A DNA stretch of 43,757 nucleotides from the sequence record MT682706.1; one strand, 5' to 3'. This document shows, piece by piece, positions 36,805 through 42,496 of this stretch. Below the pieces are notes generated by a model, which did not search any database, was not told where the DNA came from, and saw nothing but the letters and a program-made list of their open reading frames with translations. Both the position numbers and the translations under genes were made by a program. Origin of the DNA: Escherichia phage vB_EcoS_FP. Position 1 is the first letter of the stretch, and the number at the start of each line of letters is the position of its first letter.

Positions 36805-37935
36805 ATGGCAACTGCAAAAATCACTAACGAACAACTACGCGAAGAACTGGCTAATGGCATGACCAACAAGGCAATCGCAGAGAAATACGGAATGAACATT
36901 CGCAACGTTGAATTGCGTCGTAGTAAATTAGCGAAGAGCGGGGAATTGCACGGCAACCCAGGCATCAAGAAGCTAGTTCCTGAAGGTTATATGGTTAAAG
37001 GCACATCAACGATGATTGATGCCGAAGGTAACGAAAAGATTCGTTGGGTTAAAACATCCGTAGATAATGAGCGCCTTGAGGTTTTAATGGAGAAAGCTAG
37101 AGATGCATTCTGCTCTGATTTGCCAAAGGCAGATGTGGTCAACCACTCAGGAAATGAAGTTAACTCTGAATTAATGACTCTTTACCCGATTTTCGATATC
37201 CATATCGGCATGATGGCACATCGTCATGAATCTGGTGAGAATTATGACACGAAAACGGCAGAGAAATTAATGGGATCATATTTTGACCATGCAATTTCTG
37301 TATCTCCAGCCTCAGAGAAAGCAGTAATTTTAGTTGGCGGCGACTTCCTTCACTCAGACGGACTTGAGGCTGTAACCCCAGCAAGCGGACACTGCCTTGA
37401 TCAAGATAGCCGATATGCTAAGTTAGTTTATGTGGCAATTCGCTCAATTCGTGGCGCGGTAGAGAAGATGCTTAAGAAACACAAGGAAGTAGAGATTCAA
37501 ATCATAGAGGGAAATCACGACCAGAGTGGTATGATTTGGCTCCGTGCGGCAATGGCTGCATTTTATGAAAACGAGAATCGCGTGTTTGTTGATACCAGTC
37601 CGGCAATCATGCACAAGACGCGATTTGGTTCAACATTACTTGGTTACACGCACGGCCACACAATGAAGAAAGCTGAGGGTCGACTCGCGGCAATGGCGAC
37701 AGACTACCGCAAAGACTTTGGTGAATGTGAATTCGTTTACTGCCATTCCGGCCATTTCCATCATGCAACCGTTACAGAATGCACTCTTGGGATTGATGAG
37801 GTGCACCCTGCACTTGCCAGCAAGGACGCATATGCAGCACGGGGAGGGTGGCGATCATACCGACAGGCTGCTGCAATTGTTTACCACAAGAATTTTGGCG
37901 AGGTTGGTAGACACATTTATCGCCCTGGTATGTAA
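36805..37935 (+). CDS. HTH domain fused to calcineurin-like metallophosphoesterase
   Basis: N-terminal HTH-like segment; phosphoesterase motifs DIHIG, GGDFLHSDG, EGNHDQ. Confidence 0.55.
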   Translation: MATAKITNEQLREELANGMTNKAIAEKYGMNIRNVELRRSKLAKSGELHGNPGIKKLVPEGYMVKGTSTMIDAEGNEKIRWVKTSVDNERLEVLMEKARDAFCSDLPKADVVNHSGNEVNSELMTLYPIFDIHIGMMAHRHESGENYDTKTAEKLMGSYFDHAISVSPASEKAVILVGGDFLHSDGLEAVTPASGHCLDQDSRYAKLVYVAIRSIRGAVEKMLKKHKEVEIQIIEGNHDQSGMIWLRAAMAAFYENENRVFVDTSPAIMHKTRFGSTLLGYTHGHTMKKAEGRLAAMATDYRKDFGECEFVYCHSGHFHHATVTECTLGIDEVHPALASKDAYAARGGWRSYRQAAAIVYHKNFGEVGRHIYRPGM

Positions 37936-38008
37936 ATAGCACTTTTGTTAATAAAGCCTCAAAGGATTGAGGCAAAATGAATAAACGATAAAGAGATGAG
38001 GAATTGTA

Positions 38009-38482
38009 ATGATTTACGTATTTGATATCGATGGAACTATAGCTAATAATGAGCATAGAAGTCACCTCTTGCCATCCAGCGACCTTCACTTGACTTCAAG
38101 TTGGAAGGATTACAATAAAGCCTGTTCTGGAGACTCACCAATAATTCCAATGATAAAAATGATGAATGCTTTAGCTGAGTCATCTCAAGTTTACATAATG
38201 ACCTCAAGAAGTGATGAAGTTGAATGGAGAACCCTTGAGTGGCTTCAGGATAATGATGTTGAGTATGATTCGATATACATGAGAAGTCGACATGACAACC
38301 GAAAAGATTACAAAATAAAAGAGGAATGGCTCAATGAAATCAGTGGTGGCTATAAAGGCAATGTGGTTATTTTTGAAGATAACCCAAAAGTAATTAAGCA
38401 CCTAAGAAGTCGCGGATACACAGTTATGGCTGTATGTGAATATGAAGAACTACCTAAAGATTGCGAATCTCACGGAGAATGA
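38009..38482 (+). CDS. HAD-superfamily phosphatase (5' nucleotidase / PNK-phosphatase-like)
   Basis: N-terminal DxDGT motif (VFDIDGTIA); 157 aa. Confidence 0.6.
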   Translation: MIYVFDIDGTIANNEHRSHLLPSSDLHLTSSWKDYNKACSGDSPIIPMIKMMNALAESSQVYIMTSRSDEVEWRTLEWLQDNDVEYDSIYMRSRHDNRKDYKIKEEWLNEISGGYKGNVVIFEDNPKVIKHLRSRGYTVMAVCEYEELPKDCESHGE

Positions 38483-39039
38483 AAATGACTAAATTATTTA
38501 TCCTTAACGGACCGGCTGGAGTTGGCAAGGACACTATCGCAGATGTTATGCTCGAGTTGGGTGTTGTTGATGGGAAAGTTTCATTCAAGTCACCAATGTT
38601 CGATGTAGCCAGGGGGATGCTATCAAAGGATGAATTTGATTGGTTTATTGAGAACTACAACAACCGAGACGAGAAAGAAAAGCATCAAGAGATACTTGGC
38701 GGTAAAAGCATTCGAGAATTTATGATTTGGATTAGCGAGTCTGTAATGAAGCCAGTCTTTGGTGATTATGTTTTCGGTAAAAGGCTAGCCCAGTCACTTG
38801 GTGATGGTTGCTACATTTGCGCTGACGGTGGGTTTGCTAGCGAGATTAAGCCACTGATCGACACTGGTGTTGAGGTCACGTTAATCAGATTGCATAGGGC
38901 AGGGTACAAATTTGATGGCGATAGTCGCTCATACATTCATGGGGTGTGCGCAAGAGAAATTGATGTTCGTGTTGTTGATGGTGATATTGATGGAACATCA
39001 GCATTGGTAAGGCACGTAATAAATAGCACGAATTGCTAA
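38479..39039 (+). CDS. P-loop kinase (dNMP kinase-like)
   Basis: Walker A GPAGVGKDT; ATG 38479 with ACGGAG RBS; runs through a promoter motif, ending NSTNC. Confidence 0.6.
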   Translation: MKMTKLFILNGPAGVGKDTIADVMLELGVVDGKVSFKSPMFDVARGMLSKDEFDWFIENYNNRDEKEKHQEILGGKSIREFMIWISESVMKPVFGDYVFGKRLAQSLGDGCYICADGGFASEIKPLIDTGVEVTLIRLHRAGYKFDGDSRSYIHGVCAREIDVRVVDGDIDGTSALVRHVINSTNC

Positions 39040-39083: not shown

Positions 39084-39284
39084 ATGAACCAAGCGAGGAA
39101 AAACAAAATGACTAAAATGATTTACTGCACCAAGAACAACTCCAAGACCCTGCCATTTACTGTTAACCAGCCGTACAACGCAGAGTACCAGGGCGATGGA
39201 TACTACAAGATTTACGGAGACGATATGACGCACATCTTAGCGCCGATTGATGGTTCGTTAGTTGAATTTATTATCGCTGACTAG
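39084..39284 (+). CDS. hypothetical protein (66 aa)
   Basis: RBS GAGGAAAAAC; ORF track. Confidence 0.55.
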   Translation: MNQARKNKMTKMIYCTKNNSKTLPFTVNQPYNAEYQGDGYYKIYGDDMTHILAPIDGSLVEFIIAD

Positions 39285-39308: not shown

Positions 39309-39338
39309 GCGGGGGGCCTTTTGGCTCCCCTTTTTTAT
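39309..39338 (+). terminator. intrinsic terminator
   Basis: GCGGGGGGCCTTTTGGCTCCCC plus T-run. Confidence 0.65.
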
Positions 39339-40834: not shown

Positions 40835-42418
40835 TCACCCCAATAGTCGTGGATTAATGTAAACTTTATCACCAATCAGGCACGTATAGTTTTTCTCATC
40901 AAGCATTGGCAGCAAGTGATCTTTAATCTTAGTCATTACTCCAGCTTGAGCCTCGAACGGCTTAACCTTGCGAGCCGCTTCATATAGCGAACGAATACCT
41001 ACTACTCCTTTCCCGCTCTTGCCTTGCTTAATCAGGATATCAATCAGCTTATTCATCTCGGCATTGTCGCCAGCGTGACCGGCGGCGTTAGCAGATGACA
41101 AATAAGTCTTACTCAGTTCCTGGAACATAATTACAGCCTCTTGCATGGTGTCGAGCTCGATTTCTCTGGACTTCTGTGGACTCCCACCGCTAGGGTTGAA
41201 CCAGTTACGCACAGTGTGAAGAACCGCCGCAATCCTGATTGCCTGCTTATCGAACTTACCCAGCGCGCCGCGCAACATGGTGTGGGAATACTTACCGCCG
41301 TCCGCAAGGTGAGGTTCCATCTCCTGACGAGCGCGGTTGAGATATTTCATTGCTGAATTGCTAACCGTTAGTTTTACATCCTGCTCATTCATGATTTCAT
41401 GAACAAGACGGAAGTAGTCAGCCTTCAACCCGCCATCAATTGGTTCATAAGTAGATTCGCCATTTTCATCAACAAATACACGCTCGCCCAGGAGTGACTT
41501 TTCACGTACAAGCAGGAAACGCTCAGATACACCGATACCACGAGCGCCAGCGTTCATGATAGCGTTGATTGTCTCATCCTGTGCAATTACAGAGATGCAA
41601 CCCATAGCAACAAAGCTCATATTGTTTTCTCCGTTCGCACGCGCAATGGACACGTTGCCAGCATCCCATGCCTTCAGTACAAGCTCGCTGTTCGTTTTCT
41701 TTGAGCCGTCACCATAGGTCATGCCTAATAGTGAGTTGACGCTAGTTGCCTCATCAGAGATTACAGCAAAGTTGCCCTGGCGGTTGTTGATTCGGGCCAG
41801 ACCTTCTGGTGTGGTATCGGATACAGGGAAAACGATATCACAGAGCTTTTCCAGCTTTTCCTCAAGATCCTCTTTCTCCTCAAAAAGTGAGGCCATCTCT
41901 GATGGTGACTTTTCCTGCTTCATCTCTTTGGATAATGCAGATAGTTTTGCCATGATCTTCTTGCGCTCACGCTTTCTCACTTCATTCAGCCGCTCAGTCT
42001 CAGCAATCATTGGAGCAATTGAAAGTGAGTTGATTGCTGATTTACCAGTCGATGGTGGCTGGCTTGTTACAACATAAAGCGAAGTCGGTTGCTGAGTTCC
42101 GTGATACTCAACGGTAAAGCGGCCTAGCATCGCAGCGGAAATACACCCCAGGAAGTGCATGTACGCGGACGACTCCGGGAACTGAACTGAGCGAGCAATG
42201 TTAGCTGACAGCTTACCAACAACATCAACATCATTGCCGAGTGAGATTGCGGGATACTTGTCATTTGCAGCATCAATCTCGACTGGTGCTTTCCAGAATG
42301 ATTGAGATTGGCGATAGCCATTTGCATTGATGGCTACTCGCAGTGGCGGGAGGTTGTCTGCGGCAGCAATTGCCATAACCTGTTCAACAGATAGTTTATC
42401 TTCGTTGAAGTCAAACAT
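40835..42418 (-). CDS. P-loop NTPase (possible SF3 helicase / replication initiator)
   Basis: About 527 aa from ATG 42418 (RBS GGAGAG); Walker A TSQPPSTGKS, Walker B FAVISDEATS; N- and C-terminal domains paralogous to 1162-1707. Confidence 0.7.
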   Translation of the reverse strand: MFDFNEDKLSVEQVMAIAAADNLPPLRVAINANGYRQSQSFWKAPVEIDAANDKYPAISLGNDVDVVGKLSANIARSVQFPESSAYMHFLGCISAAMLGRFTVEYHGTQQPTSLYVVTSQPPSTGKSAINSLSIAPMIAETERLNEVRKRERKKIMAKLSALSKEMKQEKSPSEMASLFEEKEDLEEKLEKLCDIVFPVSDTTPEGLARINNRQGNFAVISDEATSVNSLLGMTYGDGSKKTNSELVLKAWDAGNVSIARANGENNMSFVAMGCISVIAQDETINAIMNAGARGIGVSERFLLVREKSLLGERVFVDENGESTYEPIDGGLKADYFRLVHEIMNEQDVKLTVSNSAMKYLNRARQEMEPHLADGGKYSHTMLRGALGKFDKQAIRIAAVLHTVRNWFNPSGGSPQKSREIELDTMQEAVIMFQELSKTYLSSANAAGHAGDNAEMNKLIDILIKQGKSGKGVVGIRSLYEAARKVKPFEAQAGVMTKIKDHLLPMLDEKNYTCLIGDKVYINPRLLG

Positions 42419-42449
42419 TACTTTCTCTCCGTATTGTTTCTGAGCGGCC

Positions 42450-42496
42450 ATTATATCAACGACCGCTTATAATTCATTATCAATTTGTGCTATTTA
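42450..42496 (-). promoter_or_regulatory. phage-specific promoter-like module (minus strand) for ATPase gene
   Basis: Minus strand: AAATAGCACAAATTGATAA, 22 nt, TATAAT, with the -10 overlapping the first in-frame ATG at 42451. Confidence 0.5.

Follow-up and report, generated by a model that had tools for sequence, protein, structure and literature searches.

T1 and TLS break down host DNA and reuse its nucleotides (PMC11447400), and in the Drexlerviridae the gene pair considered here has previously been noted after an exonuclease gene and read as serving nucleotide supply (PMC13164509). The kinase of phage Rao1, gp58 (R1DNK), is a characterised deoxynucleoside monophosphate kinase (DNK). According to a preprint on Kongming immunity (Zeng et al., bioRxiv 10.1101/2024.12.20.629578), purified R1DNK phosphorylates dAMP, dGMP, dCMP, and dTMP and triggers Kongming, its K15A mutant being inactive as a trigger; the DNKs encoded by KarlJaspers, a Drexlerviridae phage, and by Klebsiella phage VAC2 are triggers as well. 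The DNK gp1 of T4 excludes dAMP and dCMP, whereas R1DNK takes all four dNMPs. In the same preprint, the Dmps of T5, Bas26, and VPG01 are described as inhibitors of Kongming (the D22A mutant of T5 Dmp is inactive), Dmps are found mainly in DNK-carrying phages, and the temporal separation of Dmp and DNK in T5 is stressed. Rao1, which carries the phrog_415 HAD protein gp57, is described there as Kongming-sensitive and is rescued by T5 Dmp supplied in trans; the text examined reports no test of a Drexlerviridae HAD. Because Kongming, as presented there, exploits phage DNKs to make a dITP alarm signal, the module sits on a known defence/counter-defence axis. A paper on retron Eco2 was considered as a further source on PNK and was set aside, PNK being only a laboratory reagent there. 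The gene pair is thus already known from the literature, both in Drexlerviridae and through the co-occurrence of DNK and Dmp in connection with Kongming, and the copy described below is an ordinary member.

The window, i.e. the whole 43,757-nt stretch of Escherichia phage vB_EcoS_FP (MT682706.1) that was analysed, represents an Rtp/Rao1-like T1-family coliphage (Drexlerviridae); it is about 43.8 kb long, and related genomes are 44–46 kb. The genes and signals of the locus are as follows.

36805..37935, plus strand: metallophosphoesterase with an HTH, 376 aa, annotated as 'DNA repair exonuclease' (phrog_704, 2.9e-152)
37956..37973, no strand assigned: perfect 7-bp hairpin GCCTCAA-AGGA-TTGAGGC, read from the sequence
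38009..38482, plus strand: HAD (DxDGT) phosphatase, 157 aa, Dmp / Pnkp-phosphatase family (Pfam HAD_PNKP, phrog_415)
38485..39039, plus strand: predicted DNK, 184 aa (phrog_139)
39084..39284, plus strand: small conserved ORF, phrog_4788 (2e-32), annotated at about 58 aa in relatives
39311..39330, plus strand: intrinsic terminator GGGGGGCC-TTTT-GGCTCCCC followed by T6 (terminator scan)

The HAD and kinase genes are each present in a single copy in the window, and both ORFs have hundreds of homologs, so that neither is a chance ORF. The HAD ORF has a GAGG ribosome-binding site 7 nt 5' of its ATG and carries the motif FDIDGT at residues 5–10, and the kinase ORF, which ends at 39039, carries LNGPAGVGKDT. 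The longest form of the kinase ORF begins at TTG 38461, and an alternative ATG at 38479 overlaps the HAD stop codon as ATGA. Translation is likely to start at ATG 38485, because GGAG is present at 38474–38477, because the homologs are 184 aa long and begin with MTKLF or MKKLI, and because Rao1 gp58 is a 184-aa protein with its catalytic Lys at position 15. This predicted start lies 2 nt past the HAD stop, so that the two genes would abut without overlap; the earlier note, which had described a HAD gene followed 'with overlap' by a Walker-A kinase gene, placed both ORFs correctly, but the overlap probably does not exist.

No terminator was detected by the scan between the HAD and kinase genes, which lie on one strand 2 nt apart, and the metallophosphoesterase, HAD, and kinase genes apparently share one transcription unit. 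The hairpin at 37956..37973, located inside the 73 nt that separate the metallophosphoesterase gene from the HAD gene, was scored by the scan solely as terminator-like, on the minus strand, and a promoter scan around the genes yielded a site count no higher than that in shuffled sequence. The small ORF at 39084..39284 is the final gene ahead of the terminator, a position that is kept in SU57, OzMSK, JulesPiccard, and Rao1, and beyond the terminator lies the cassette of holin, endolysin, and spanin genes, separate from the kinase/HAD unit. The order metallophosphoesterase, HAD, kinase, small ORF, and holin is identical in Rao1 (PQ221054.1). Mosaicism at the locus is greatest in the HAD gene: its product is 43% identical to Rao1 gp57, versus 90% identity for the metallophosphoesterase (Rao1 gp56) and 69% for the kinase (gp58; 85% similarity over 183 aa). 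The two HAD proteins represent different alleles of one family, the window protein being shorter by 25 residues at the N-terminus.

Linkage of the two genes is strong. Of 78 viral loci, 66 have the HAD gene co-oriented with, and upstream of, the kinase gene, and the HTH-metallophosphoesterase gene is contiguous with both in 22 of the 78. Natural HAD–kinase fusion proteins were also identified (P0169, present in two samples, and P0176), and in locus L086 a metallophosphoesterase homolog with 42% identity is encoded directly 3' of the fusion gene. The context of P0169 was obtained by an exact-match look-up, and a search of viral contigs for its relatives found none. A shared pathway is very probable for HAD and kinase, given that single polypeptides combine both in some phages. 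The same trio of genes is present in ZPAH7, a T7-like Aeromonas phage, with a Metallophos gene that is unrelated to that of the window. In T1, TLS, and JulesPiccard-type genomes, the pair is located far from the metallophosphoesterase gene. The idea that the pair is a sometimes-absent accessory cassette was rejected: JulesPiccard, in which it is missing at this locus, has an early region that includes HAD, a small ORF, and the kinase, i.e. the pair has been relocated, not lost.

The motifs DxH, GD, GNH, GH, and GHxH of the metallophosphoesterase are invariant in its family alignment, and its N-terminus contains a weak LuxR/FixJ-type HTH. Profile searches against PDB, Pfam, and NCBIfam returned nothing informative for this protein, only a weak PdeM-like stretch and the weak FixJ-type HTH. 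Homology to T5 A1 was considered and rejected, as the GNHD motif alone was aligned, with a probability of 3%. T5 A1 is a host-DNA degradation protein whose gene lies next to dmp.

The P-loop protein of the window is, from sequence and fold comparisons, predicted to be a dNMP kinase of the gp1/R1DNK type, not a Pnk-like enzyme. It matches phrog_139 in a profile search (2.5e-40), as does T4 gp1 (1.8e-65; the query sequence was confirmed to be 100% identical to record X03016). The best PDB fold match of the kinase model is T4 gp1 (1DEK), and the model shows the two-domain fold of the gp1/R1DNK type, with a P-loop core and a five-helix (NMP-binding) domain; among viral proteins, its structural neighbours bear annotations as dNMP or phosphomevalonate kinases. 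Sequence methods were less informative: the Pfam search gave no kinase family above the cut-off, single-sequence and profile searches of PDB returned P-loop matches only, so that the relation to 1DEK required a fold search, and hhalign of the kinase profile against the single sequences of T4 gp1 or T4 Pnkp aligned the P-loop alone and did not discriminate between them. In the 184-aa form, the Walker A motif GPAGVGK(15)DT, whose lysine corresponds to K14 of gp1, is invariant across the kinase family alignment.

Residues of the 1DEK nucleotide pocket, taken from a published list (PMC10653934), were mapped onto the window kinase by a MAFFT alignment at 18% identity. Six are family-invariant (gp1 R68, R132, M135, D175, E181, and W152, corresponding to R63, R79, M82, D116, E122, and F99), the counterpart of gp1 L32, F36, is shared by 31 of 32 sequences, and the P-loop residues G, K, D, and T are also kept. 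The basic residues K37 and R177 of gp1 are replaced by F and G, respectively (both invariant), and R11 by G (31 of 32 sequences) in the subfamily to which the window kinase belongs. An insertion of about 50 residues that is specific to gp1 is missing from the window protein. The lean towards nucleotide metabolism in the earlier note was thus correct for the kinase, given its phrog_139 membership, its 1DEK fold, and its 69% identity to R1DNK.

That note had offered, as the other option, two halves of a split T4 Pnk-like RNA-repair enzyme, and this option is not supported. In profile searches, the kinase gave no match to the families of the T4 Pnkp kinase domain (phrog_505, phrog_2071, and phrog_8238), and hhalign against T4 Pnkp covered residues 3–27, i.e. 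the P-loop, only. The Asp35/Arg38 motif of T4 Pnk, in which Asp35 is the general base, is missing (Arg126 was also sought): after strand 2 the kinase reads VSFKSPMF, with no RDDYR-like motif. T4 Pnk is absent from the best 60 structural neighbours of the kinase. The earlier observation that no RNA ligase is recognisable was borne out among the window ORFs of at least 250 aa, all of which, apart from the two largest tail ORFs, were scanned and assigned to other functions, and no RNA ligase is annotated around the pair in the examined stretches of SU57, OzMSK, and Rao1. With no RNA ligase identified in these scans, the data lend no support to RNA repair.

The HAD protein matches Pfam HAD_PNKP (PF25109) over residues 3–143 (4.7e-18; 66.1 bits versus a cut-off of 27.6), and Pnkp1 and T4 Pnkp supply its nearest solved relatives by fold, in the form of their 3'-phosphatase domains. 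The T4 Pnkp catalytic set is conserved in the HAD protein as D6, D8, T65, K104, D124, R17, and R67. The counterparts of R17 and R67, Arg176 and Arg213, belong to this set according to the T4 mutagenesis literature. D6, D8, T65, K104, and D124 correspond to Asp165, Asp167, Ser211, Lys258, and Asp278 of T4 Pnkp, in which D165 is the nucleophile, D167 the acid-base, S211 and K258 contact the phosphate, and D278 the Mg2+ (PMC3592404). HAD is a standalone protein, unlike T4 Pnkp and Capnocytophaga Pnkp1 (1LTQ, 5UJ0, and 4XRP), with neither a Pnk-type kinase domain nor a partner RNA ligase.

In profile searches, the protein also belongs to phrog_415 (4.2e-53), together with Rao1 gp57 (9.8e-60) and T5 Dmp (T5.001; 1.1e-56 over profile positions 3–217 of 218). 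The catalytic motifs of T5 Dmp, T4 Pnkp, and the window HAD line up in an alignment in which the R, D, K, and D columns are invariant and D22 and D24 of T5 Dmp are aligned with D6 and D8. T5 Dmp and the window HAD share DxDGT with an Arg at +11, T/S-x-R, KDxxxK, DD, and a cap segment of similar length, and each shares its genome with a DNK. T5 Dmp differs from the window protein in having a 24-residue insert, a C-terminal extension of about 50 residues, and no Pfam match, and the direct similarity of the two is limited (BLASTP 2e-4 over 56 residues; hhalign probability 41%, E 2.8e-4, 132 columns). T5 dmp is a pre-early gene on the first-step-transfer DNA, expressed before the DNK and not adjacent to it, whereas the window genes are 2 nt apart.

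In HAD enzymes generally, the size of the cap relates to that of the substrate. After motif I, the window protein contains a cap insert of 14–16 residues (LLPSSDLHLTSSW) that is common to standalone HADs and absent from T4 Pnkp and Pnkp1; it therefore does not match the minimal Pnkp-type cap, which is open for polymer ends. By sequence, the protein resembles the deoxynucleotidase of T5 as well as the end-healing phosphatase of T4, and its target may be either a 5' or a 3' phosphate.

A differently composed pair is found in the rV5-like phage naam, in which gene 192, encoding a kinase from the same family, has as its immediate downstream neighbour gene 191 for a HAD-superfamily nucleotidase, in a nucleotide-metabolism cluster with ThyA and NrdD (thymidylate synthase follows the nucleotidase). 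The gene order is reversed relative to the window, and the naam phosphatase is of the PF06941 NT5C type (phrog_420), not HAD_PNKP. The window HAD gave no Pfam match to NT5C at E <= 1 by the same method that detects this domain in naam gene 191. Of the dNMP kinase plus 5'-nucleotidase pair that had been suggested earlier, the kinase half holds; the HAD shares phrog_415 with T5 Dmp, but is not of the NT5C type and is at the same time Pnkp-type. The profile comparison of dNMP kinase and PNK families proposed in that note separates the kinase clearly (phrog_139), while the HAD matches both HAD_PNKP and phrog_415; an either/or choice for the HAD accordingly fails, this protein being Pnkp-type by Pfam, fold, and residues, yet a member of phrog_415 with T5 Dmp.

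With a probability of roughly 0.6, the pair consists of a phage dNMP kinase and a Dmp-family HAD nucleotide phosphatase that together manage the deoxynucleotide pool of a T1-like phage. The host chromosome would be degraded and its nucleotides reused by the phage; the kinase, judging from its orthology to the 69%-identical Rao1 enzyme, would convert all four 5'-dNMPs to dNDPs, and host Ndk would finish dNTP synthesis. As its conserved residues and fold suggest, the HAD would act through an aspartyl-phosphate mechanism with D6 as the nucleophile, D8 as the acid-base, T65 and K104 at the phosphate, and D124 at the Mg2+, and it would strip phosphate from mononucleotides rather than from RNA ends, trimming or editing the dNMP pool like T5 Dmp. 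Action on mononucleotides is proposed because phrog_415 is common to this protein and T5 Dmp, because the cap insertion is missing from T4 Pnkp, and because the pairing with a DNK is conserved. Several points argue against pool management of this kind. If a 5'-dNMP phosphatase were produced together with a dNMP kinase, or as one polypeptide with it, both would compete for the same substrate, and the temporal separation of Dmp and DNK that the preprint describes for T5 would be impossible for abutting genes. Because Rao1 is, according to that source, Kongming-sensitive despite gp57, this HAD lineage may not deplete 5'-dAMP efficiently. The replacement of gp1 K37, R177, and R11 in the kinase subfamily, as aligned, would also count against this reading.

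Competition would not arise if the HAD were a true 3'-phosphatase in a three-step line of host-DNA recycling, which we regard as possible though doubtful: the metallophosphoesterase would cut DNA, the HAD would free 3' ends, and the kinase would follow. Acting on oligonucleotides, 3'-dNMPs, or 3',5'-bisphosphates, the HAD would yield usable ends or 5'-dNMPs, phosphatase and kinase thus working sequentially. The closest solved relatives and the fully conserved T4 catalytic set favour such an activity, and the T4 domain hydrolyses 3'-dTMP in addition to polymer ends (PMC3592404). Sequential enzymes are typical candidates for fusion, and HAD–kinase fusions exist; the metallophosphoesterase gene is contiguous with the pair in 22 of the 78 loci, adjoins the fusion gene in a different order, and is replaced at the same place in ZPAH7 by an unrelated Metallophos gene. 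The Kongming sensitivity of Rao1 described in the preprint would fit a HAD that spares 5'-dAMP. However, no nuclease that leaves 3' phosphates is known from T1-like infection. Mre11/SbcD-type metallophosphoesterase nucleases leave a 3'-OH and a 5'-phosphate. The distance between the pair and the metallophosphoesterase gene in T1, TLS, and JulesPiccard-type genomes also argues against this line, as do the PHROG and cap insertion shared with T5 Dmp, a 5'-nucleotidase. Somewhat less probably, the HAD, instead of being a simple 5'-deoxynucleotidase like that of T5, may be a phosphatase that is coupled to the kinase both physically and functionally and has a complementary specificity (a 3'-phosphatase, or an editing nucleotidase for non-canonical dNMPs such as dIMP or dUMP). 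Kinase, HAD, and HTH-metallophosphoesterase would then constitute a three-enzyme module making clean dNDPs from host DNA, in which case the metallophosphoesterase could be the nuclease that attacks the host chromosome in T1-like infection. The coupling would be visible in the abutment, translational linkage, or fusion of the HAD and kinase genes.

Counter-defence is unlikely to be the main role of the HAD. In that case, the enzyme would remove dAMP or dIMP near its own kinase, blunting Kongming or a similar nucleotide-sensing immunity and shielding the phage from a liability that its DNK creates. The inhibition of Kongming by the T5, Bas26, and VPG01 Dmps and the co-occurrence of Dmps with DNKs, both from the preprint, are consistent with this role, as is the presence of T5 Dmp and the window HAD in phrog_415, and the mosaicism of the HAD (43% versus 90 and 69%) is what an arms-race gene might show. 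On the other hand, Rao1, with the same module, is described in that text as sensitive and in need of T5 Dmp in trans, and the temporal model given there for T5 is at odds with a HAD expressed together with the kinase. Highly improbable is a split T4 Pnkp-like system of end healing, in which a 5'-kinase and a 3'-phosphatase would mend either tRNAs cleaved by anticodon nucleases or nicked DNA that bears 5'-OH and 3'-phosphate ends. The Pnkp-type character of the HAD, the fusions that superficially mirror T4 Pnkp, and the 'polynucleotide kinase' label of many database records all point in this direction, but the label is applied because phrog_415 carries it, and this family has no kinase domain and includes T5 Dmp. 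The kinase itself is a dNMP kinase by family, fold, and its identity to R1DNK, without a Pnk-type family match and aligned to T4 Pnk by its P-loop alone, and no RNA ligase was found among the scanned window ORFs or is annotated near the pair in the SU57, OzMSK, and Rao1 stretches. Moreover, if ends were healed to 3'-OH and 5'-phosphate, host RtcB would be deprived of its substrate.

For phage annotation, these results mean that hundreds of records name the HAD a 'polynucleotide kinase' although it has no kinase domain, while the neighbouring 'ATPase' or 'hypothetical protein' is a predicted dNMP kinase with a characterised ortholog. Since Kongming uses kinases of this type to make dITP, a phage with such a module is predicted to trigger it. 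The function of a phosphatase made alongside the kinase, or joined to it as one protein, bears on whether editing or redirection of the dNMP pool takes place in T1-like phages in a way that has not been described.

The window belongs to a T1-family siphovirus (Drexlerviridae), and its DNA is approximately 90% identical to that of OzMSK/Msk, SU57, and ACG-M12. Its larger ORFs include those for terminase, portal, capsid, tail, primase, helicases, and lysis, together with recombination genes (exonuclease VIII, Erf, and SSB). The HAD phosphatase and Walker-A kinase that the earlier note had placed side by side were both identified there, co-oriented and at the coordinates assigned to them. The features concerned are as follows:

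36805-37935, + strand: 376-aa HTH and metallophosphoesterase protein, annotated as 'DNA repair exonuclease', with all canonical motifs invariant
38009-38482, + strand: HAD phosphatase ORF, 157 aa, N-terminus MIYVFDIDGT
38485 (likely ATG)-39039, + strand: P-loop kinase ORF, motif LNGPAGVGKDT
39311-39330, + strand: intrinsic terminator (terminator scan), 8-bp stem with seven G-C pairs followed by T6

A GAGG ribosome-binding site can be read 7 nt ahead of the HAD start. The longest form of the kinase ORF starts at TTG 38461, and at 38479 there is an alternative ATG that overlaps the HAD stop codon (ATGA). The start is likely ATG 38485, because GGAG precedes it at 38474-38477, the kinase homologs are 184 aa long and begin with MTKLF or MKKLI, and gp58 of phage Rao1 has this same length, the catalytic Lys being residue 15. 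From this start, the two genes would abut with 2 nt between them, so the overlap described in the earlier note would disappear. Positioned behind a small ORF (39084-39284) and ahead of the holin gene, the strong terminator sets the lysis cassette apart from the HAD-kinase transcription unit. Between the metallophosphoesterase and HAD genes is a perfect 7-bp hairpin (GCCTCAA-AGGA-TTGAGGC, 37956-37973) without a U-tract on the plus strand, which might serve in RNA processing or stability. Elsewhere in the window, a 181-aa ORF close to the left end (1162-1707; phrog_7327) and the 538-aa helicase (40835-42451; phrog_2373) encoded on the opposite strand have a segment in common, which in the helicase is C-terminal, and each matches the other's PHROG.

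The kinase is a deoxynucleoside monophosphate (dNMP) kinase and not a polynucleotide kinase. The decisive evidence comes from experiments on Rao1 (PQ221054.1), which has the same gene order as the window and whose gp58 (R1DNK) shares 69% identity and 85% similarity with the window kinase. R1DNK was purified by Zeng et al. (bioRxiv 10.1101/2024.12.20.629578), who showed efficient phosphorylation of dAMP, dGMP, and dCMP, with dTMP a substrate as well; the K15A mutant has lost the biological effect, and deletion of R1DNK slightly lowers dATP at no fitness cost. The corresponding kinases of Drexlerviridae phage KarlJaspers and Klebsiella phage VAC2 act like R1DNK in vivo.

Profile searches gave the same assignment. 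No Pfam family scored above cut-off, but the kinase matched phrog_139, 'deoxynucleoside monophosphate kinase' (2.5e-40), which also contains T4 gp1 (1.8e-65; query 100% identical to the T4 record), and none of the PHROGs into which T4 Pnkp falls (phrog_505, phrog_415, and phrog_2071). Viral proteins structurally close to it carry annotations as dNMP kinases or phosphomevalonate kinases. When the published binding residues of T4 gp1 (1DEK; PMC10653934) were mapped onto the family alignment, the equivalents of R68, R132, M135, D175, E181, and W152 were invariant, as were the G, K, D, and T of the P-loop, and that of L32 was kept in 31 of 32 sequences, whereas F, G, and G stand in place of K37, R177, and R11. 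The family thus appears to be a divergent gp1-like subfamily. Some other T1-like phages have the kinase homolog in two parts (JK_59P and JK_60P in Jk06) or with homing-endonuclease inserts (a 518-aa DOD-type protein in JEP1), and an HNH gene interrupts the HAD-kinase locus in ACG-M12-like genomes.

No RNA ligase was found in the window, as the earlier note had stated, or in the annotated stretches examined of close relatives. With the kinase outside the T4 Pnkp PHROGs and its Rao1 relative a dNMP kinase, the proposal of a split Pnkp-like RNA-repair enzyme is not sustained, and the lean of the note towards nucleotide metabolism holds for the kinase half.

The phosphatase stands between two characterized enzymes, the T4 Pnkp phosphatase and T5 Dmp, the classical deoxynucleoside-5'-monophosphatase. 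It scored 66 bits against Pfam HAD_PNKP (cut-off 27.6), and its family profile matched Pnkp1 at 6e-19 and T4 Pnkp at 6e-12 (hhalign, 98.4% probability across T4 residues 161-298). The catalytic set of T4 Pnkp (D165, D167, S211, K258, and D278; Das and Shuman, PMC3592404) is complete (D6, D8, T65, K104, and D124), with R17 and R67 as the counterparts of R176 and R213. T5 Dmp (motif I region WD22LD24GTIINSFHR) matched phrog_415 over its full length (1.1e-56), the PHROG also matched by the window HAD (4.2e-53) and Rao1 gp57 (9.8e-60). Pairwise, the HAD is roughly as far from T5 Dmp (2e-4) as from T4 Pnkp (5e-4), and in a joint alignment identical catalytic columns are invariant across all three. 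Both resemblances raised in the earlier note were therefore recovered. The window HAD is not a nucleotidase of NT5C type, for which the Pfam search gave no match. The segment after motif I is longer in standalone HADs, fusion HADs, and T5 Dmp than in T4 Pnkp and Pnkp1; on general HAD principles, a larger cap would favour small substrates. From its sequence, the window HAD may remove either 5' or 3' phosphates. Escherichia phage MIZ6 (Krischvirus, T-even-type) encodes a second, standalone HAD (locus L085, 3501-3977; 44% identical to the window HAD) whose start overlaps the end of nrdB; a further HAD match in this record is assumed to be the phage's own pseT.

The HAD (38009-38482, compared with 1903-2451 of the Rao1 locus L094) is mosaic: it is only 43% identical between the window and Rao1, compared with 90% for the metallophosphoesterase and 69% for the kinase, and its GC content is 36-39%, against 40-51% and 39-45% for the respective genes. 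These contrasts suggest that alleles of a single family have been exchanged while the gene kept its place.

The HAD and kinase genes are functionally linked. Among 80 viral loci fetched by the kinase profile, a kinase ORF could be called in 78, and in 66 of these 78 a HAD of the window family preceded the kinase by 0-2 kb on the same strand; the order was never reversed. JulesPiccard lacks the pair at the window-equivalent locus and carries it in the early region, as likewise does TLS according to its annotation (Gp09 and Gp14; PMC11447400); the two genes thus move together. Exhaustive profile searching yielded 4,273 kinase representatives, and in two of these one polypeptide joins a HAD_PNKP domain at the N-terminus to a kinase at the C-terminus: P0169 (403 aa), whose sequence recurs unchanged in two independent samples, on contigs reaching 60.8 kb, and P0176 (461 aa). 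The gene behind the P0169 fusion shares 42% identity (2e-106) with the window metallophosphoesterase gene, which is contiguous with HAD and kinase in 22 of the 78 loci, i.e. 22 of the 23 in which HAD and kinase abut. The window metallophosphoesterase has no Pfam or PDB sequence match and no detectable homology to T5 A1; it could be a candidate host-DNA nuclease of T1-like phages. ZPAH7, a T7-like Aeromonas phage, has a Metallophos gene without detectable similarity to it in the equivalent place, after exonuclease and endonuclease genes, and rV5-like phage naam has an NT5C-type HAD and thymidylate synthase after its kinase. All these contexts are those of DNA and nucleotide metabolism. Another protein, P0292 (363 aa), fuses a kinase of the window family to an N-terminal region with weak, sub-threshold HTH-like Pfam matches, which recalls the HTH of the metallophosphoesterase.

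T1-type phages break down host chromosomal DNA and recycle the nucleotides (PMC11447400). The kinase would raise the flux from dNMP to dNDP, the reaction shown for its ortholog, and host Ndk would complete dNTP synthesis. The HAD most likely acts on mononucleotides. A serious rival is that it has 3'-phosphatase or editing specificity, feeding the kinase rather than competing with it. A simple T5-like 5'-nucleotidase role is disfavoured, since Rao1 has gp57 and yet is sensitive to Kongming, a bacterial defence that uses phage dNMP kinases, unless T5 Dmp is supplied; moreover, in the model for T5, Dmp has to act ahead of the kinase (Kongming paper), whereas here the two genes are coupled or fused.

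The window pair is an ordinary example of a known gene pair. 'Polynucleotide kinase' and 'dNMP kinase' genes directly behind the exonuclease gene in Drexlerviridae have been interpreted as nucleotide supply (KanT1 paper, PMC13164509), and co-occurrence of Dmp and dNMP kinase is in the Kongming paper. In the literature examined, we found no mention of natural HAD-kinase fusions, of the recurrent metallophosphoesterase linkage, or of the inclusion of T5 Dmp in phrog_415. That family, labelled 'polynucleotide kinase', contains no kinase domain, and hundreds of phage genome annotations have taken over its label for standalone HAD phosphatases.
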